A stretch of 64,000 nt of DNA from Spirochaetota bacterium (lineage in GTDB: Bacteria; Spirochaetota; UBA6919; CBDBPB01), in NCBI GenBank assembly GCA_965208615.1, contig CBDBPB010000001.1, positions 32,001-96,000 of the forward strand, given 5' to 3'. Of this stretch, positions 7,930-64,000 are shown piece after piece. Made by a program: the position numbers and the translations under genes. Position 1 is the first letter of the stretch. Each line of letters begins with the position of its first letter. The notes beneath the pieces are model-generated. The model had not been told where the DNA came from. It made no database searches and saw only the letters and a list, made by a program, of their open reading frames with translations.

Positions 7930-8268
7930 CTATTTCCAACTAAGAAGTGCTGCCTCTTCGCTATTATATACCTCAAAAAAGTTATCCAATTTACTAAACT
8001 CAAATATTCGTTTTACAGCACCTTCTATATGCATAACCTTTAATGAACCATTTACTTTTTTAAAATTGGCAAAGTTAGAAATTAAAACTCCTAATCCTGA
8101 GCTATCCATATAATTAACCTCTTTCAAGTTAATTAAAACATTAATCTTTTTGTCCGTTAAAAGACTTTTTAATAATTGTCTTAGTTCATTTGCATCAGAA
8201 AGTATACTAATCTCACCTTTTATATCTAAGATAGTTATATTATCCAATTCTCTTAAATCAATTTTCAT
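7930..8268 (-). CDS. STAS-domain anti-sigma factor antagonist
   Basis: NLKEVNYMDSSGLGVL motif. Confidence 0.92.
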   Translation of the reverse strand: MKIDLRELDNITILDIKGEISILSDANELRQLLKSLLTDKKINVLINLKEVNYMDSSGLGVLISNFANFKKVNGSLKVMHIEGAVKRIFEFSKLDNFFEVYNSEEAALLSWK

Positions 8269-9148
8269 TAATGGCTCCAGAAGTTACTCTACCGCTAAAG
8301 ACATTGCCAAGGCTTTTTTTGTTTATTTCTTTTATTATATCGTCTATAATATTCTTTGGAGTAGAAGTACCTGTAGTAATACCAATAGACATAATATTAC
8401 TAAAATCAATATTTTGTATTTCATTAGGTTTTTCAATTTGAATAGTCTTTACACCCTGATTTCGACAAATTATATATAGCTTTGTCGTATTAGAACTATT
8501 TTTACTACCAATAACAATCATTAGATCAACTTGTTTTGAAATAGCTTTAGCCTCTGACTGTCTTTTTATAGTTACCCCACAAATAGTCTTACAGATTTTC
8601 ACCTCTTTCGCAAAATCGATTATTATAGGGAACAAATGTGCAACATCTTCCAAGATTATTGTACTTTGAAAAACAACAGCAATTTTTTTCTTTTTAGTTA
8701 ATGGTTTAAGGTCACCTTCATTTTCTACGGCAAGACACTGTTCTTCTATTTGCCCTGCAATACCTACTACTTCAGGATGTTGTTTTTTACCTAAGATAAT
8801 AACAAAATAGCCATCATGAGCTAAATTTTTAACTAACTTTTGAGTTCTTTTCACAAAAGGACAAGTTGTATCTATAATATTTATTCCCTTACTCTCAAAA
8901 GAGTTATACATTTTTGGAGAAATACCATGAGCTCTTATAGCCATGGTATTAGATTTAAGTTCATTTATATTATCTATAACAGATATATTATATTTACTAG
9001 TTAATTCTCTCACCGCAGACGGGTTATGAATAAGGGGTCCAAAAGTATGAACTTCAGTTTTTAAATTTTTAGCAACTTCAATAACCTTATCAAAAGCGTC
9101 TTTTACGCCGTAACAATAACCTATTTCTTTTGCTATAATTATATTCAT
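8258..9148 (-). CDS. ispH: 4-hydroxy-3-methylbut-2-enyl diphosphate reductase
   Basis: GYCYGV, LIHN, IRAHG, DTTCPFV, HPEV, TIC, SSNT and GTSTP motifs. Confidence 0.95.
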   Translation of the reverse strand: MNIIIAKEIGYCYGVKDAFDKVIEVAKNLKTEVHTFGPLIHNPSAVRELTSKYNISVIDNINELKSNTMAIRAHGISPKMYNSFESKGINIIDTTCPFVKRTQKLVKNLAHDGYFVIILGKKQHPEVVGIAGQIEEQCLAVENEGDLKPLTKKKKIAVVFQSTIILEDVAHLFPIIIDFAKEVKICKTICGVTIKRQSEAKAISKQVDLMIVIGSKNSSNTTKLYIICRNQGVKTIQIEKPNEIQNIDFSNIMSIGITTGTSTPKNIIDDIIKEINKKSLGNVFSGRVTSGAINEN

Positions 9149-9188: not shown

Positions 9189-9506
9189 TTAGCTTTCCCA
9201 GTTATAAATTAGTCTTTCTACTGGTTTTCCATTTTGCATATGACTTTCCACAATTTCTTCTACATCTTTTACTGTTACTTCTTTGTACCACGTAGCCTCA
9301 GGATAAACAACTATAGAGGGACCACTACTGCATGGGCCCATACATGCAGTTGCAGTTACGGATACTTCTCCATATAGATTTCTTTTTTCCATTTCTTCTA
9401 CCAGTTTAACATAAATGTCTTGTGATCTACCCTGACCACAAGATGGTTTAGTCATTGGAGGACGAGTAGTTGTGCAGACAAAAAAATGTTTTTTAAAGTG
9501 GCTCAT
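9189..9506 (-). CDS. Thioredoxin-like [2Fe-2S] ferredoxin
   Basis: HFFVC...SC...ACMGPC..GP.IVVYPE..WY; ATG at 9506 has an AGGAG RBS. Confidence 0.9.
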   Translation of the reverse strand: MSHFKKHFFVCTTTRPPMTKPSCGQGRSQDIYVKLVEEMEKRNLYGEVSVTATACMGPCSSGPSIVVYPEATWYKEVTVKDVEEIVESHMQNGKPVERLIYNWES

Positions 9507-9786
9507 AGGTTCTCCTTTAATATTATCAGCAGACATTAAAAATATAATAACCCTTTAAAAAGTTGTAATACTATTTATATCCTAAAAAGTAATATTATTT
9601 TAATAAAGGTTTACGATTTACATTAGTTTAAATTATACTAACCTAATATAGATTAAAGAGTTAACTTTAGTTTTACTAAACTGTTAAGAAAATTAGCTAT
9701 ATTAGTATATATAAATCTAGTTAAATATGCAAGAAAGTCAACTTTTATTATTAATAAAAACTTTTAACTCTAAGACAAAAAGGCTC

Positions 9787-10690
9787 CTGATGAAGGTAAA
9801 AAGGTTATGAAAGAGGTTTTTGACAATGGGGATAAATATAAACATGTAGGTTTAGACTTTGAGTTAGGGCTGGTAAATATATTTATTTGTTACTAATTGT
9901 TTTAGTAGTGTAGAGCAAAGGTACTCTAAGGTAATTTATCTTTTTTAAAACTTAAAAAACACAGATTATGAAGTTATAGAAAGTGTTCTGATGAAGGTAA
10001 AAAGGTTATGAAAGAGGTTTTTGACAATGGGGATAAATATAAACATGTAGGTTTAGACTTTGAGTTAGGGCTGGTAAATATATTTATTTGTTACTAATTG
10101 TTTTAGTAATGTAGATAAAAGGTACTCTAAGGTAATTTATCTTTTTTAAAACTTAAAAAACACAGATTATGAAGTTATAGAAAGTGTTCTGATGAAGGTA
10201 AAAAGGTTATGAAAGAGGTTTTTGACAATGGGGATAAATATAAACATGTAGGTTTAGACTTTGAGTTAGGGCTGATAAGCATATTTATTTGTTACTAATT
10301 GTTTTAGTAGTGTAGATAAAAGGTACTCTAAGGTAGTTTATCTTTTTTTAAAACTTAAAAAACACAGATTATGAAGTTATAGAAAGTGTTCTGATGAAGG
10401 TAAAAAGGTTATGAAAGAGGTTTTTGACAATGGGGATAAATATAAACATGTAGGTTTAGACTTTGAGTTAGGGCTGGTAAATATATTTATTTGTTACTAA
10501 TTGTTTTAGTAGTGTAGATAAAAGGTACTCTAAGGTAATTTATCTTTTTTAAAACTTAAAAAACACAGATTATGAAGTTATAGAAAGTGTTCTGATGAAG
10601 GTAAAAAGGTTATGAAAGAGGTTTTTGACAATGGGGATAAATATAAACATGTAGGTTTAGACTTTGAGTTAGGGCTGGTAAATATATTTA
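9787..10690. repeat. Tandem array of about 4.5 copies of a 201-bp unit
   Basis: CTGATGAAGGTAAAAAGGTTATG recurs at 9787, 9988, 10189, 10391 and 10592; units near-identical, no unique spacers. Confidence 0.97.
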
Positions 10691-10742
10691 TTTTTTTGTT
10701 AAGGTTAAAGGGATATTATTTAATAGTTTAGTTATCATTTTA

Positions 10743-10751
10743 TGATAGAAT
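10743..10751 (+). promoter_or_regulatory. Extended -10 promoter-like motif TGaTAGAAT
   Basis: Matches TGnTAnnnT; conserved in the second copy (about 52327-52335); lies just upstream of the conserved core. Confidence 0.4.
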
Positions 10752-10761
10752 TATGGATAGT

Positions 10762-11160
10762 CATACAAGGTAAAAAGGCAAGACATATAACGTAAAGGGA
10801 AGTGAATTCCAGATTTCTTTGTGGAACAGGAAAATTAAAATATTCATGGAAAAGTTATTTCCTTGTGTCAAGCAGGTTATCCCTTTATGCTCTTTAAGTG
10901 CTGCTTAAATGCCTTAGCAATGAACACAAAATATCACTTTTTATGCAAGTAGTCATCACTACGAGAGCTATTAAGAATCCCTTGCTGAGACTAAGGATTA
11001 TAGACCTTTATTAAGTGTTAACGGATTTATTGTTCTATAAAAGGATAGAGCGGATTATTGGAATATTCTATATTGACTTTATGTGTATATTTCTATGGGA
11101 ATTAAAAATAATAGAACAGCTTATACCTATAAAAATTGATTAACTTAGAACGTTTTTACA
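10762..11160 (+). ncRNA. Candidate structured non-coding RNA, family unassigned
   Basis: No long ORF; nested stems (10775-80/10910-15, 10791-800/10880-89, 10807-11/10822-26, 10828-33/10858-63) with G-U pairs on the + strand; duplicated at 52346. Confidence 0.4.
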
Positions 11161-11351
11161 ATAAACTACTAAAACATTTGATAACAAAATGCCCGATAGA
11201 ATGCTTTTTGTTATATTTGCTAAAACGTTTGTTAACAAGTTAGTCCAAAAAAGGAAAAAAAAAAGAAAGAACAAAAATATTGAGTTAACTTCTGATATGC
11301 TTAATGAAGCTACAATATGGATAGAAGGTTTAGATAAAATTCATAGACCTA

Positions 11352-14300
11352 TTATTTGCCTATACTGCCTTCAACCACACTAACTAAACTATCAAACCTA
11401 TCATTAAATAGACTAATCTGACCCGATATTTGTGTCATTGCATCACCCTCTTTAAGCTTACCTAATGCCTTGCCTTTTTTATAAGTAGACCGAATATAGC
11501 TAAGCCTTTCAGCCTCATCTTGACTTAGCCAGCCAATAAGCTCTTTAAACCTAAGAAGGTTAAACTCAGCTCCAGTAGTAAGAAGTTGCGACTCATCAGT
11601 ATAGTGATTCATAATCAACTGATTAAGCTCCTCTTCATTCATAATAGGAACTACTTTTTCAGCCATCTTATTCATATTACGATAAGATCCTTGAAGTAGA
11701 AAGTTAGGCTCAGTTCTATAATCATCATCTTGAGCGGCAGAATATATGTATTGCTGATTAACTTTTAGTATAACATCTTGGATGACCAACAGCTTTTTAA
11801 AAACATTAACAAACTCTTTAACCTCTTCCATGGAATAGCCTTTTTCAAACTGAATACCTTCTGAACTATTAGTTTTGGCTATTTTAATCATTTCATAAAT
11901 ATCATGTTGACTACGAGATGCTAGCTTATTTAGTACAGTGTTGGATGTTAAACAATTCTCAAGATAAGATAAGTTAAAAACCTCTGCATTACCACCAATA
12001 ATATCCCCCAGATTATATGTATCAGCACGGTTAGCAAGCATATCAGGTACTCTAAACTTCTCACCACTTTCTGTATAAGGGTTGCCAGCCATAACAACAG
12101 CTACTTTCTTACCCCTAAGATCATAGGTTTTAGTTCTACCGTTATAAACTCCTTCAATCTTACGCTGAGCATCACACAAAGAGATAAACTTCTGTAAAAA
12201 CTCTGGATTACAATGTTGAATATCATCCAAATATATCATCACATTATTAGCCATCTCAAAAGCAAGGTTAAGCTTTTCAACCTCCTCTCTGGCAGTGGCA
12301 TTAACCGCCTCATCAGGATCAAGAGAACTAACCTGATTACCAATGGCTGGACCATTGATCTTCATAAAAATAATACCCAAACGATTACTAATATATTCCA
12401 TAAGAGTTGTCTTGCCATAACCCGGTGGAGAGATAAGCATAAGAAGTCCCATAAGGTCAGTACGTTTAGCTCCTCCAAAGGCTCCCATTTGCTTGGCAAG
12501 GTTAGTGCCAATTAGAGGTATATAAATTGAGTCAATCAGCCTATTCCGTACAAAAGAACTCATCACCTTAGGCTTAAACTCATTAAGACGCATATCTTCT
12601 TTTTTTGCTTCAGTTAGTTTTCTCTTCAGCTGAACATAGGCTTTATAGCTAGGGACTGACTCCAAATAAAAACTATTCAACCTAATTATAAAATCACTAA
12701 TATCAAGCTTTAGTGTGTGTCCATCAACTCTTGAATGCTGACCTATTATCCCATTAATTGTACAAATGGTATTAACAGGTTTAACAAGGCTTTTATCCAC
12801 AGTCTTTCGTGTTAAAAGGCTAATAGCCTCAATTAAGAAGTTATTTTTAGAGTGATTGTTCTGTTTTTCGTTATCATTATATTTAACAAAATGGAATAAC
12901 CAATCTTGGATTATAAATAGTTTACTTTCCAAGTCTGAGCCAACTGCCTTAATGGATTCAATAAACTTTTTGCTTGGGTCTTTCTTTTTCAAAAACTTTA
13001 TAAATCCAGCATAAATATCATAAGCATACTTAGTTATAGGAAATAAGTCTGACCCATCTTTTAACTTCTCTAAAAGAAAGTCTGGTATTTGTTTGAGATA
13101 GAGATCATTTACTGGCCAGGATAACTCACTAAAAAAGCTATCCACCATTACTCTAAGCTGTTTAGCGTATTCTTGGTGATAGTCCTGACTATCGGTTAAA
13201 GAATTTAAATAGCCAAAAGACTTAATCTTTTCTCTTAGACAAGTCTTATCCTCAGACTCAGGTGAATAATACCAAAAGATAGCTCCATAAGCTCTTGTGG
13301 ATGGGTGAAACCTAAGAATACCTGCCTCTTGTAAAACAGGATGGATAGTGGTTAATATCTTACAGGCATCCTCATCATGGACTCCTTTTTCATAGCCCTC
13401 ATCATATAGCCCTGACATAAAATCCCTAATGGTTTGTAATAATCTAGAGGGATTAGCAATCTGTTCTTTTAGTTCATTCTTTGATATAGGCTTATTCTCT
13501 GTTTCTATGCTGGTTAAGAATTTATAAGCCAAATATTCAGCACGATAAATACTTTTTGTCTCACTTGGCCATTCTTGTTGCCAAAACCTTTTAGTATTAT
13601 TAAAATCATTATCCTTAATCTTTTCAAAGAACTCAGTCCCAGTAAGATGGTAATACATAGACCCATTACGGTTTACAGTAGTAAGATCAAAAGCTTGTGT
13701 GTTAACAGTAAACTTATGGGAGCCAAAGGTAATTATATTACCTCCGTGCTCAAAAAGGTCTAAACGATCTTTTAGCTGTCTTGCACCGTCCTGTTGTAGG
13801 CTTTTTAGCCTACTAACAACCTCTTCAGACTTAACACTATCCCCAAGATCAAAAAGCTGTTTAACTATATCTTTAACCTTAGCTATCATCATATCAGAGG
13901 CAAAATAGCCGTTTAACTCATCAATGGACTTTAAGGTTTTAGTCCTATTGGATATACCCTTAAGAATACGATCAGCAGAGTTCCAAAGGGATATGGTCTT
14001 ACGATTTAGGCTTTCTTGTAATTGAACCTTACGATTGTCAAAGGCACTATATACCTCATTACGTTTTTCAGTTAGCTTTTCAATGTAGTCCTCAAAGTCA
14101 GAAAACTTACCTTCTAAGCTCTCAATCTGAACCATGACCTTAGTAAGAAGCTCTTCACATTTTTCAACGGTATCAGCCTGATCAATAAAGTTAGTCACCG
14201 ACTGATTAATAAGTTTAAACTGAGAAGAGAACTCAGCCTTAGCCTCATTAGAAAAAAGAGCCTTATAATGCTTTTTATGGATCGCCTTAACCTGATTAAT

Positions 14301-19980: not shown

Positions 19981-20637
19981 TTAATCTATATCATTAATAA
20001 TTAGGCGAGTTTCGTCTTGAGATATTACACGACGAATTGCCTCATCATTAAGTTGACCCTTTTTCTGTTTAGTATTTTCAGTATTTTTCTGTTTAGTATT
20101 TTCAGTATTTTTCTGTTTAGTATTTTCAGTATTTTTCTGTTTAGTATTTTCAGTATTTTTCTGTTTAGTATTTTCAGTTTTAACATTATTTGATGACTTA
20201 TTAGCGAGACGTTGTTGAACATTATTTCTTTTTATAGTATTTCTTTTTATTTTGGTCTTATATAGTTTAGTTTTATATAGAGTTGAAGATTTTATACTTT
20301 TGGGTATATTATTGTTTTGAATAGGTTGTTCTTCCTTATTAGTAAGATTATCATTATTAGGAAGGTTATCATTTTTTATAATTATTTGATTATTTTTTTC
20401 ATTATTTAGTTTATCTGTATTTTCTTTGTTTACGACTACGTTATTAGTCTCAATTAATTTTTTAGATTTATTAGAACTTTCACTACTAAGATCGCCTATT
20501 TTATCATAATCATAAGAATAAATATACTCTAAGTAACTACGTATACTAACAATAGATAATATTATAATAGCTAAAAATAGTATTACTCTTTTATAAGGCG
20601 ACCTTTTTTTAATAGGTTTTGTAAAAAGACCACTCAT
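19981..20637 (-). CDS. Membrane-anchored low-complexity protein with 8-aa tandem repeat
   Basis: N-terminal TM, Asn/Lys-rich, (TENTKQKN) about 5 times. Confidence 0.7.
   Translation of the reverse strand: MSGLFTKPIKKRSPYKRVILFLAIIILSIVSIRSYLEYIYSYDYDKIGDLSSESSNKSKKLIETNNVVVNKENTDKLNNEKNNQIIIKNDNLPNNDNLTNKEEQPIQNNNIPKSIKSSTLYKTKLYKTKIKRNTIKRNNVQQRLANKSSNNVKTENTKQKNTENTKQKNTENTKQKNTENTKQKNTENTKQKKGQLNDEAIRRVISQDETRLIINDID
20061..20178. repeat. 24-bp coding VNTR, about 5 copies
   Basis: TTTTCTGTTTAGTATTTTCAGTAT repeated with period 24. Confidence 0.95.
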
Positions 20638-49737: not shown

Positions 49738-50109
49738 TTGTCTTCTCCTATTAACATTATTTACAGATTATTAACTCATACACTGATATATCTTAAACAC
49801 CCAATGTAATATTTAACTATAATGATTATCCAGCATACAAATTGTCAAATTATCATTCAAAACAATATATGTTATTTTTGAGGCTTAAGTATAATAAAAA
49901 AAAGATCTATCGACAAGGTCTTTACTACACTTATGTATATCTATATTCTAAAATATACCATAATTATTGAAGAATTATGGTATTAATTGTTTTACTAGTG
50001 TAGAAAGGTATTATAAGCTATCTTATATTCATAGAGCTTACTAAAATATAAATAAAACCTATTTAGCAATTGTCTTTAAATAATTCTTTACTTAAAAATT
50101 AGTAACAAC

Positions 50110-50232: not shown

Positions 50233-51765
50233 TTATGGCTTAAGGAGCTTCTTTATTTCGTCAGTTTTTGCTATATCAAGTGGAGTTCTGCCTTTTTTAT
50301 CTTTTATATTAATATTGGCTCCTTTAGATAGTAATAATTTAACAACCTTTGGACGTTCATATTTAACAGCCATAAATAAAGGAGTTTTGCCTTTTTTATC
50401 TTTTTTATTAATCTTAGCTCCTTTAGACAGCATCATGCTAACAAACTCTGCCTTTCCATATTTAGAAGCCACATGTAAAGAAGTTTTGCCATGTTTTTTA
50501 CTTGCGGCATTAACCTTAGCCCCTTTAGATATTAATAATAGTCCAGTCTTTGTATGCCCATGTTCAGCGGCCTCATATAGAGGAGCGTTACCCTTCTTTA
50601 CAGTTGCTACATTAACTTTAGCCCCTTTAGATATTAATAACTTAGCTACCTCTGTCTTTCCAAACTCACTAGCCACATGTAAAGGGGTCCAACCACGATT
50701 TTCTTTTGCATTGACCTTAGCCTTATTAGATATTAATGATTTGGTTATCTTTACATCCCCCCAAAAAGAGGCCCTATGTAAAGGTGTATAACCGGTTTTA
50801 TCCTTTGCATTAACATTGGCTCTATTAGATATTAATAGATTAACAATTTCTGGAAGTTCGCTAATAACAGCCAGATGTAAAGGAGAGTTACCAAGAGCAT
50901 CTGCTGCATTAACATCGGCTTTTTTAGATATTAATAATTTAACAGCCTTTGAACGTCCATGTTGAACAGCCATCAATAAAGGAGTTCTGCTTTTTTTATC
51001 TTTTTTATTAACCTCAGCTCCTTTAGATAGTAATAAGCTAATAACCTTAGTTTTTCCATACTTAGAAGCCACATGTAAAGAAGTTTTGCCATGCTTTTTA
51101 CTTGCTCCATTAATCTTAGCTCCTTTAGATAATAAAAACTTGATTACTTCTATATGTCCATGCTCAGCGGCCTCATATAAAGGAGCGTTACCCTTTTTAG
51201 TCTCTATATCAACCTCAACGCCCTTATCTATTAATAATTTGACTACCTCTAACTTTCCAAACTCACCAGCTATATGTAAAGGACTCCAGCCACGATCATC
51301 AGGCTCAGCAACCTTAGCACCTTTATCTACTAATAACTTGGCAGTATTTATATCTCCACTATTAGCAACCCTATGTAAAGGAGTATTACCGGTTTTATCT
51401 TTTGCATTAACTTCAGCTCCTTTATTTATTAATAACTTGGCAACTTCTGGATGCCTACTAATAATAGCATTATGTAAAGGAGTATTACCAAATTCACCTA
51501 CTGCATTAACCCCAGCTCCCTTAGAAAGTAATAGTTGAGCTATCTTCATATCACCATTACCAGCAGCCATGTGTAAAAAAGTATTACCATTTTTGTCTGA
51601 TACATTAACCTCAGCTCCTTCACTTATTAACTTTTCTACTATTTTATAGTCGTTAGCTAAATTGTTAGTACTACTTTTAGATACTGATGTCTTTTTTGAT
51701 TGTCCACAATTTAGTACTAACGAAAAAGTTAACAAAAAGGTAATCACTGTGAGTAATTTTTTCAT
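50233..51765 (-). CDS. Ankyrin-repeat lipoprotein (about 14 repeats)
   Basis: MKK...VLNC signal; G.TPLH.A...G......LL..GA.VN repeats. Confidence 0.95.
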   Translation of the reverse strand: MKKLLTVITFLLTFSLVLNCGQSKKTSVSKSSTNNLANDYKIVEKLISEGAEVNVSDKNGNTFLHMAAGNGDMKIAQLLLSKGAGVNAVGEFGNTPLHNAIISRHPEVAKLLINKGAEVNAKDKTGNTPLHRVANSGDINTAKLLVDKGAKVAEPDDRGWSPLHIAGEFGKLEVVKLLIDKGVEVDIETKKGNAPLYEAAEHGHIEVIKFLLSKGAKINGASKKHGKTSLHVASKYGKTKVISLLLSKGAEVNKKDKKSRTPLLMAVQHGRSKAVKLLISKKADVNAADALGNSPLHLAVISELPEIVNLLISNRANVNAKDKTGYTPLHRASFWGDVKITKSLISNKAKVNAKENRGWTPLHVASEFGKTEVAKLLISKGAKVNVATVKKGNAPLYEAAEHGHTKTGLLLISKGAKVNAASKKHGKTSLHVASKYGKAEFVSMMLSKGAKINKKDKKGKTPLFMAVKYERPKVVKLLLSKGANINIKDKKGRTPLDIAKTDEIKKLLKP

Positions 51766-51917: not shown

Positions 51918-52770
51918 TGTTATCGATTGTTTTAGTAGTGTAGAAAGGCATTATAAGTTAGTTTATCTTTCTAAAACTTCCTAGTTAACATTTTTAATAA
52001 AAAAATAGTTTTTTTATTAAAAATGAGCTAATTTATAAAGTTAAATTTTAAAAATAACAAAACAGGGTAGGAGAAGGCGGGGCTATTTATAATAATGAAG
52101 AGCAAAAGTATTCTAAGGTAATTTATCTTTTTTTAAAACTTAAAAAACACAGATTATGAAGTTATAGAAAGTGTTCTGATGAAGGTAAAAAGGTTATGAA
52201 AGAGGTTTTTGACAATGGGGATAAATATAAACATGTAGGTTTAGACTTTGAGTTAGGGCTGATAAGCATATTTATTTTTTTGTTAAGGTTAAAGGGATAT
52301 TATTTAATAATTTAGTTATCATTTTATGATAGAATTATAACGAGGCATACAAGGTAAAAAGGCAAGACATATAACGTAAAGGGAAGTGAATTCCAGATTT
52401 CTTTGTGGAACAGGAAAATTAAAATATTCATGGAAAAGTTATTTCCTTGTGTCAAGCAGGTTATCCCTTTATGCTCTTTAAGTGCTGCTTAAATGCCTTA
52501 GCAATGAACACAAAATATCACTTTTTATGCAAGTAGTCATCACTACGAGAGCTATTAAGAATCCCTTGCTGAGACTAAGGATTATAGACCTTTATTAAGT
52601 GTTAACGGATTTATTGTTCTATAAAAGGATAGAGCGGATTATTGGAATATTCTATATTGACTTTATGTGTATATTTCTATGGGAATTAAAAATAATAGAA
52701 CAGCTTATACCTATAAAAATTGATTAACTTAGAACGTTTTTACAATAAACTACTAAAACGCTTGATAACA
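51918..52770. mobile_element. Putative non-autonomous element (MITE-like), copy 2
   Basis: Left TGTTATCGATTGTTTTAGTAGT, right ACTACTAAAACGCTTGATAACA; 52099-52770 homologous to about 10515-11186. Confidence 0.6.
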
Positions 52771-52839
52771 AATTGTATCCCATTTGAGTAAATAATAAAT
52801 AAATAAAACCTAAAATAATCCTAATTATGAATGTATTAT

Positions 52840-62938: not shown

Positions 62939-64000
62939 TCAATCTATATCAGAACCCTTTTTAGCCCCCTTAGACCTTAAGAGCTTAATAGTAGCTGTAT
63001 GCCCCTCTTCAATAGCCATGTCTAATGGAGTCTCACCATTCTTATTTTTAATATTAACATTAGCCCCCTTAGATATTAATAATCTAACTGTTTTTGTATG
63101 GCCACTAGAAGCAGCCCAATGTAAAGGAGTAAAGCCGTATTTATCTTGTACATTAACATTAGCACCCTTAGATATTAATAACTTAACAACCTTTGTACGC
63201 CCCTTTTCAATAGCACTATGTAAAGGAGTATAGCCGTATTTATTTACTACATTAACATTAGCACCCTTAGATATTAATAACTTAACAACCTTTGTACGCC
63301 CCTTTTCAATAGCACTATGTAAAGGAGTATAGCCGTATTTATCTTTTACATTAACATTAGCACCCTTGGATATTAATAACTTAACAATCTTTGTACGCCC
63401 CTTTTCAATAGCCCAACTTAAAGGAGTCCAGCCATATTTACTTACTCCATTAACATTAGCCCCCTTAGATATTAATAACTTAACAACCTTTGTACGCCCC
63501 CTTTCAATAGCCCTATGTAAAGGAGTATAGCCATTTTTACTTGCTACATTAACATTAGCACCCTTGGATATTAATAATCTAACTGTTTTTGTATGGCCAC
63601 TATCAGCAGCCCAATGTAAAGGAGTATAGCCATCTTTACCTGCTAAATTAACCTTAGCACCCTTAGATATTAACAACTTAACAACCTTTGTACGCCCTTC
63701 TATAGCAGCCCTATGTAAAGGAGTAAAGCCAAATATACTTACTACATTAACCTTAGCACCCTTAGATATTAATAATCTAACTGTTTTTGTATGGCCACTA
63801 TCAGCAGCCCTATGTAAAGGAGTAAAGCCGTATTTATCTTGTACATTAACATTAGCACCCTTAGATATTAATAATCTAACTGTTTTTGTATGCCCCCTAT
63901 CAGCAGCCTCATGTAAAGGAGTAAAGCCGTATTTATTTACTACATTAACCTTAGCACCCTTAGATATTAATAGTCTAACTGTTTTTGTATGCCCCTTTTC
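62939..64000 (-). CDS. Ankyrin-repeat protein, 5' end outside the window
   Basis: Frame stays open from 63676 to the window edge; about 10 tandem 99-bp repeats. Confidence 0.95.
   Translation of the reverse strand, partial: EKGHTKTVRLLISKGAKVNVVNKYGFTPLHEAADRGHTKTVRLLISKGANVNVQDKYGFTPLHRAADSGHTKTVRLLISKGAKVNVVSIFGFTPLHRAAIEGRTKVVKLLISKGAKVNLAGKDGYTPLHWAADSGHTKTVRLLISKGANVNVASKNGYTPLHRAIERGRTKVVKLLISKGANVNGVSKYGWTPLSWAIEKGRTKIVKLLISKGANVNVKDKYGYTPLHSAIEKGRTKVVKLLISKGANVNVVNKYGYTPLHSAIEKGRTKVVKLLISKGANVNVQDKYGFTPLHWAASSGHTKTVRLLISKGANVNIKNKNGETPLDMAIEEGHTATIKLLRSKGAKKGSDID

Follow-up and report, generated by a model that had tools for sequence, protein, structure and literature searches.

Tandem array of 201-bp units in a Spirochaetota genome as the probable product of the left arm of an orphan MITE-like repeat family

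Long-period intergenic VNTRs occur in small AT-rich genomes such as those of Wolbachia (VNTR-141/105) and Ehrlichia ruminantium, with units around 100-300 bp and very high within-array identity, and in eukaryotes the stacked ends or internal repeats of TIR elements (Tetris, DINE-1-like) expand into satellites, in arrays that are far larger and from elements whose transposase family is known. MITEs span about 50-1000 bp and have no coding capacity. In the BOX elements of Streptococcus pneumoniae, boxA and boxC enclose a tandem array of boxB whose copy number varies; these elements are judged to be parasitic and become more variable as their arrays lengthen (PMC3049150). The BrickBuilt MITE of Porphyromonas gingivalis is described as a 23-nt minisatellite flanked by a leader on one side and a tail on the other; its inverted ends are small, its 19 copies are always intergenic, its target-site duplications are given as unclear, its ends resemble resident IS5-family elements, and fixed units of 23 nt (BrickBuilt) or 41 nt (464/PgRS) are present in 1 to 22.8 copies (PMC4596501). 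In this work we analysed a tandem array within a window of 64,000 nucleotides (the whole stretch of DNA examined) from a Spirochaetota bacterium, together with its own genome (2.46 Mb in 9 contigs, 31% G+C, 99.4% complete). We consider it probable, at about 0.6, that this array arose by amplification of the left arm in one copy of an orphan, MITE-like, non-coding, TIR-bounded and lineage-specific repeat whose left arm is a tandem-duplication hot spot, the array itself being a VNTR-like by-product.

The original prediction had proposed an array of about 4.5 units built from the left end of a TIR-bounded element, so that four left ends would be stacked against a single right end, and all of this was recovered in our analysis. 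Tandem Repeats Finder reported one array at the locus (period 201, 4.5 copies, 98% matches, score 1756), and a repeat search in the window gave start-to-start distances of 201, 201, 202 and 201 bp between its units. Each complete unit joins an A module of ~100 bp, opening with CTGATGAAGG, to a B module of ~100 bp, opening with the left terminal repeat TGTTACTAATTG (Table 1); both modules are also found apart from each other in the genome. The left-end 26-mer TGTTACTAATTGTTTTAGTAGTGTAG occurs exactly at 9888, 10290 and 10492 and with 1 mismatch at 10089; two more matches with 3 mismatches are present in the window, at 49978 and 51918, and 100 shuffles yielded 0 matches. The corresponding right end is inverted and single, an inverted repeat of 58 nt (71-72% complementary) pairing the arms 9886-9943 or 10490-10547 with 11131-11188. 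The heptamer TTTGTTA, which had been noticed at the unit junctions and at the start of the downstream region, is indeed present wherever an A module is followed by a left end, and it recurs at 10695-10701, at the passage from the last A module to the core. A DNA fold of the unit predicts a 7-bp hairpin (TTACTAA..TTAGTAA) at the left terminus. At its other extreme the array opens with an A module directly against unique flank, with no left end there; a diverged B module to the left of 9787 was considered and rejected, its local alignment score of 43 comparing with 35.5 ± 5 (maximum 51) for shuffles.

Table 1. Positions, in the 64,000-nt window, of the array, of the element to which it belongs, of related copies and of flanking genes
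Feature	Position	Strand	Basis or remark
LytB/IspH	8258-9148		flanking gene of the element copy
[2Fe-2S] ferredoxin-like gene, thioredoxin-like	9189-9536	-	below Pfam cut-off
Tandem array	9787..10693	+	4.5 units of 201/202 bp, order A-B-A-B-A-B-A-B-A; TRF and spacings
Array units	9787-9987, 9988-10188, 10189-10390, 10391-10591; partial unit (A only) 10592-10693	+
First B module, left arm opening with the left terminal repeat TGTTACTAATTGTTTTAGTAG	9888..9987	+	motif matches
Other B modules	10089-10188, 10290-10390, 10492-10591	+
Other A modules	9787-9887, 9988-10088, 10189-10289, 10391-10491	+
Last A module (~100 bp)	10592..10693	+	abuts the core directly
Conserved non-coding core, ~390 bp	10694..11087	+	40 copies of at least 250 bp; most conserved at ~10825-11005
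Right arm (variant 1), ending with the right terminal repeat CTACTAAAACATTTGATAACA (11166-11186)	11088..11189	+	inverted left terminus
Optional 3' block ending GCTAAAACGTTTGTTAAC	11187..11237	+	common to at least 8 other copies
DUF3686/AAA ATPase gene, 1648 aa	11352-16298	-	its 3' end faces the right end of the element
Second element copy, without array	52087..52772	+	BLAST 98.4% over 495 bp (C1:84278-84772)
Solo left-end or B-like fragments	51918..51979 (+) and 49978-50040		3-mismatch motif matches

The region downstream of the array had been taken for unique, a claim that did not hold. BLAST of 10694-11190 against the own genome returned 64 HSPs, of which 40 extend over at least 250 bp at 81-98% identity, so that this region is itself a repeat with 40 copies of that length. 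The genome-wide search of the unit, proposed with the original prediction as a check, gave 117 matches in the own genome, and B-like and A-like sequences accounted for 83 and 66 HSPs, respectively; the family as a whole occupies at least 34.8 kb (1.42% of the genome). Of the 40 copies, 26 have a left-end motif upstream of the core and 30 have a right-end motif. Where there is a single left end it is placed 177-203 bp ahead of the core; the DNA preceding its TGTTA is unrelated between copies, and that beyond the right end also differs from one copy to another. The right arm exists family-wide in two variants, both ending CTACTAAAAC..TAACA, the inverted image of the left terminus, and among the terminal-repeat pairs that face each other with no ORF in between, 14 form a tight group at 589-695 bp. 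Taken together, the single left end, the right arm ending in the inverted left terminus and these pair distances lead to a basic element of ~0.64-0.70 kb, consisting of the left end or B module (~100 bp), the A module (~100 bp), the core (~390 bp) and the inverted right end. A further block of ~50 bp is carried by at least nine copies, the studied one and eight others (8, 15, 16, 17, 19, 20, 22 and 27 of the 40), in which it is found 32-35 nt past the first right end. The junction between A and core is common to many other copies in the alignment, and that of the last A module in the studied array is the ancestral form, as in single-unit copies. Within the core, diversity is several-fold lower in the centre (0.03-0.19, mostly below 0.14) than at the edges (0.13-0.37); much of the edge diversity derives from discrete subfamily variants, and the centre may be under constraint.

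The second copy in the window comprises a B module without the terminal repeat (52087-52175), one A module (52176-52280), a core at 52278-52772 that is 98% identical to 10694-11190, and a right end; together with the two solo fragments it flanks a 510-aa minus-strand ORF (50233-51765) containing 99-bp repeats. Unit 3 of the studied array carries at 10268-10288 the variant GGCTGATAAGCATATTT, identical to the A module of this copy 42 kb away (52255-52275), and the other units read GGCTGGTAAATATATTT; this correspondence may reflect gene conversion between the loci or shared ancestry of the unit. At two other sites the ends of elements touch each other: at C4:388245-388290 an inverted right-end-like stretch lies 26 nt before a left end, and at C7:82336-82350 a right end is followed without a gap by a left end or B module, TTTG being common to both. 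These abutting ends are hints of end-to-end stacking or end-targeted insertion.

The family displays the features of a MITE, namely TIRs, a size of 589-695 bp with no coding capacity and many dispersed intergenic copies in unrelated contexts. From its sharp inverted ends, unit-length copies and unrelated contexts, such as a non-autonomous transposon leaves, we infer that it has been mobile. The flanks of the 40 copies showed no target-site duplication of common length or motif, with only C7:2631 having a possible 5-bp repeat (GCTCT). The search for transposases covered five common Pfam families, Y1_Tnp (PF01797), OrfB_IS605 (PF01385), DDE_3 (PF13358), DDE_Tnp_1 (PF01609) and rve (PF00665), which gave 0 matches in the 99.4% complete genome. 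A REPIN/RAYT system was discarded on this basis, there being no Y1 (RAYT) transposase gene and PF01797 having 0 matches in the own genome. Four ORFs placed between terminal-repeat-like pairs were likewise rejected as an autonomous partner; they correspond to a permease, a radical SAM protein, a pentapeptide protein and a further protein without a family assignment. Beyond this genome, the element was found in 0 of 40 relatives, the nearest of which are only of the same order, and single-sequence BLAST against 400 genomes of the phylum returned only matches of 22-49 nt (E 9e-5 to 0.01), which we read as chance. An exact 27-mer had 0 matches in metagenome contigs and 0 in species-genome contigs. 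In the same genome FlaA (PF04620) gave 8 matches above cut-off, in keeping with a spirochete.

Tandem arrays at the left arm are a trait of the family and not of the studied copy only. Tandem Repeats Finder run on the whole genome reported 72 arrays with a period of at least 40 bp, 44 of them inside ORFs and 28 intergenic; of the latter, 18 are next to the 5' edge of a core, at distances of -80 to +150 bp, and another 3 are located just 3' of a core. Between left flank and core, copies contain from one up to 15 units. The periods next to cores are 74 (x15 and x12), 110, 137, 144-146 (four loci), 156, 158, 165, 169, 201, 203, 208, 222, 263 and 318 bp. Units of the same array are for the most part 93-100% identical, two short arrays being lower at 84% and 87%, and modules at different loci are 75-96% alike. 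When mapped onto the basic element, the units turned out to be different slices of the left arm, and at least 12 structures can be told apart. Among them are B alone (74 bp), B with part of A (169 and 110 bp), B and A exactly (201 bp, the studied array), B and A extended by 20-30 nt into the core (203 and 208 bp), and the 3' part of A with the core start and ~50 nt of other sequence (144-146 and 156 bp); a 137-bp array has no similarity to the left arm. Since the units are different slices of this arm, the arrays must have had at least 12 separate origins. Ten arrays contain a left end, and in 7-8 of these the left breakpoint falls between -2 and +5 nt from the left terminus; right breakpoints range from position 68 to 236. 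The stretch from left terminus to core is therefore a genome-wide tandem-duplication hot spot. The presence of arrays at 18 of the 40 members, with differing unit boundaries, is better accommodated by a local duplication hot spot than by a designed array. No bias in replication direction was revealed by GC skew (8 of 18 copies with arrays versus 8 of 22 without). The genome is generally rich in long-period repeats. The window also holds a perfect 24-bp tandem repeat at 20060-20178 (5.0 copies, 100% matches; TTTTTCTGTTTAGTATTTTCAGTA), and a 99-bp (33-codon) repeat array that occupies 63053-63995 and runs on to C1:97461, with 24.3 copies on the contig; the latter presumably belongs to a repeat-protein gene, for which an ankyrin-type protein would be a guess.

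Could the element instead be a functional regulatory module, the core being an ncRNA gene or a protein-bound site and the units expandable binding, promoter or recombination sites that tune the core or its neighbours, as in a contingency locus? We regard this as rather unlikely. The original prediction had seen a candidate RNA gene downstream of the array, and none of the tests lent support to it: Rfam gave 0 matches at the gathering level (one chance 5.8S match, E 5.7), RNAalifold on the 40 cores gave a consensus fold of -20 kcal/mol over 451 columns, to which covariation contributed -2.25 kcal/mol, with compensatory change in only 3 of 65 pairs, and single-sequence folds were no better than shuffles (z -0.64 and -1.0). 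A structured non-coding RNA gene was thus not supported, for want of an Rfam family, of more than weak covariation and of stability above shuffles, and no tRNA or tmRNA was detected in the window. The low diversity of the core centre relative to its edges could speak for a selected function instead of subfamily mosaicism, and arrays recur on one and the same side in 18 of the 40 cores. In addition, in 28 of the 40 copies the gene next to the array side is divergent and turns its 5' end towards it, 7 of these genes being members of one surface-lipoprotein-like family, and BOX and BrickBuilt are reported to affect or drive transcription (PMC3049150, PMC4596501). Against these points, stacked promoters or terminators were searched for at 9500-11400 and rejected, with 5 promoter-like sites against 10.8 expected from shuffles and 0 terminators; no sigma-70-like promoter is wholly inside the units, and one weak minus-strand match (10708-10681) straddles the boundary between array and core. 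The element has the same orientation as its downstream gene in 25 cases and the opposite in 15, at distances of 13 to 834 nt. Unit boundaries that vary by locus, and one array without shared sequence, are moreover a poor fit to a repeated specific site.

Coding interpretations fared no better. Comparison by blastx of two units plus the core with the 2348 own ORFs of at least 100 aa retrieved nothing at E up to 1, by which a gene-tail origin of the unit was rejected. A 29-aa ORF present in the unit (MKEVF...) was discarded for lack of conservation: in the C4:172xxx array it is interrupted by a stop at codon 3 of the homologous A module. A 20-codon ORF in the core (10845-10907), M[E/K]KLFSC[V/I/L]KQVIPLCSLSA[V/A], is intact in 35 of the 40 cores; it was rejected as coding sequence on its 7 synonymous, 27 non-synonymous and 3 stop variants (expected synonymous share 0.21, p 0.66). 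This ORF bears a faint likeness to the start of a lipoprotein signal peptide and could be the fossil of a gene head.

The genomic setting of the copies bears on a different explanation, according to which the repeat would be a non-mobile homology block, spread by segmental duplication and gene conversion along with a variable surface-lipoprotein family, and the studied copy would be a stray product of recombination. All 40 cores are intergenic and none overlaps an ORF of at least 100 aa; 15 stand between divergent genes, 22 between co-directional ones (9 along the genes, 13 against) and 3 between convergent ones. A lipoprotein-like family with MKK...C signal peptides, represented by 23 ORFs in the genome, adjoins 8 of the 40 copies, far above chance, 7 of these 8 ORFs being found beside the left end with transcription directed away from the element. 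It is probable that part of the family's spread took place together with these lipoprotein-like genes, perhaps by segmental duplication. The homology-block explanation could further invoke the four arrays of 144-146 bp with one unit structure, the mosaic nature of both right and left arms, and the variants common to different loci, as in unit 3 and the copy 42 kb away, which both carry GATAAGCATA. Nonetheless, 67 of the 80 flanking ORFs have no relative among the other flanks, and the studied copy itself is found between the ferredoxin-like/ispH operon and the DUF3686 ATPase gene. Homology stops at the inverted terminal repeats, unit-length copies of 589-695 bp recur, and the two 74-bp arrays are in different flanks with different right arms. 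As an account of the family as a whole we judge such a block unlikely. With respect to the neighbour on the right, the 1648-aa protein, whose gene converges on the right end of the element, contains DUF3686 (E 6e-175; annotated as an ATPase with a role in DNA repair) along with DUF7902 and, at the C-terminus, an AAA domain.

Returning to the amplified left arm as the preferred reading, the array could have arisen in the following way. An illegitimate duplication would have copied the whole 201-bp left arm, from the left terminus TGTTAC to the boundary between A and core; both duplication boundaries are preceded by or contain TTTGTTA, and we propose, in line with the amplification through microhomology suggested by the original prediction, that this first duplication took place between TTTGTTA-containing boundaries. 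Unequal recombination or slippage between the now-long direct repeats would then have brought the array to 4.5 units. Across the family, the hairpin-forming left terminus would be the preferred switch point, and it probably favours template switching, because most arrays have their left breakpoints within a few bases of it. As the leftmost unit begins with A against unique flank, an extra deletion of the first left end must be assumed. By an alternative route, a copy would re-insert into the left arm of a resident copy, with subsequent recombination between the two cores, which would likewise lead to a junction at the terminus; a precise cut is, however, hard to reconcile with offsets of -2 to +5 nt and the absence of a shared target. 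Any effects on neighbouring genes, for instance through altered spacing ahead of the divergent ferredoxin-like/ispH operon, would be of a secondary nature. It is tempting to speculate on a stronger version, in which the left terminus is an active, site-specific amplification point, its hairpin end triggering template switching or end-targeted re-insertion by an unknown enzyme, so that the element makes arrays of its own end wherever it lands. This version appears to us decidedly unlikely; were it true, it would provide length-variable tracts upstream of divergent genes, including 7 variable surface-lipoprotein members, and thereby a built-in generator of contingency loci in a spirochete without the five common transposase families searched.

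That the array is a single unit inflated by mis-assembly is scarcely credible: although the contigs of three public sequencing runs are short and fragmented over the repeat and none of them spans the array, the units differ among themselves by 7 substitutions and one 1-nt insertion, as the unit-specific variants pointed out with the original prediction already argued, a 188-nt contig of run X2 (same study) bridges, with 2 differences, the A-to-left-end junction at 9887/9888, a junction that only a duplicated arm can have, and 17 other such arrays are present in the same 9-contig assembly. Word depth in the runs was 7.5 in single-copy flank, and the values of ~500 in core bins are the sum over all look-alike contigs, not a copy number.

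How does this family compare with the systems described before? The boxB module measures ~45 nt. BOX and the present family are alike in being intergenic, non-coding, multi-copy and lineage-restricted composites with terminal inverted repeats and a module that is tandemly repeated to a variable degree; in both cases, too, the element is read as a parasite that transposes at a low rate, and variability grows with array length. However, BOX reiterates one fixed module, boxB, whereas here the period goes from 74 to 318 bp with a different left-arm slice at each locus. The present element is also larger, it has a conserved core of 390 bp, and no IS with similar ends was found. With BrickBuilt and 464/PgRS the family has in common a MITE-like, intergenic nature, tens of copies and a tandem array inside an element that has small inverted ends and non-repetitive outer parts; it differs from BrickBuilt in its heterogeneous units of 74-318 bp, in arrays restricted to one arm and in having no matching IS in the genome. 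In short, non-repetitive parts with inverted ends around a variable array are present, as in elements of the BOX and BrickBuilt type, and a single fixed module common to all copies is absent. Compared with the VNTRs of Wolbachia and Ehrlichia, the present arrays stand out in that 18 of 28 are tied to one position of one dispersed family. The expansion of the ends or internal repeats of a TIR element into arrays is likewise seen in Tetris and the DINE-1-like elements, which are eukaryotic. The family is thus new, MITE-like and restricted to its lineage, and its left arm is a hot spot of tandem duplication; relative to BOX and BrickBuilt, it is set apart by many different long units from the same arm, a large conserved core and no IS with like ends.

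The studied array is therefore not a one-off beside a unique RNA gene; it is an instance of a genome-wide rule, with one arm of one orphan family accounting for 18 of the 28 long-period intergenic arrays. With at least 12 independent origins and breakpoints at a hairpin terminus, the family is a clean natural system in which to ask why tandem duplications start where they do, and its arrays offer VNTR markers that could be used directly to type strains of an uncultured spirochete.
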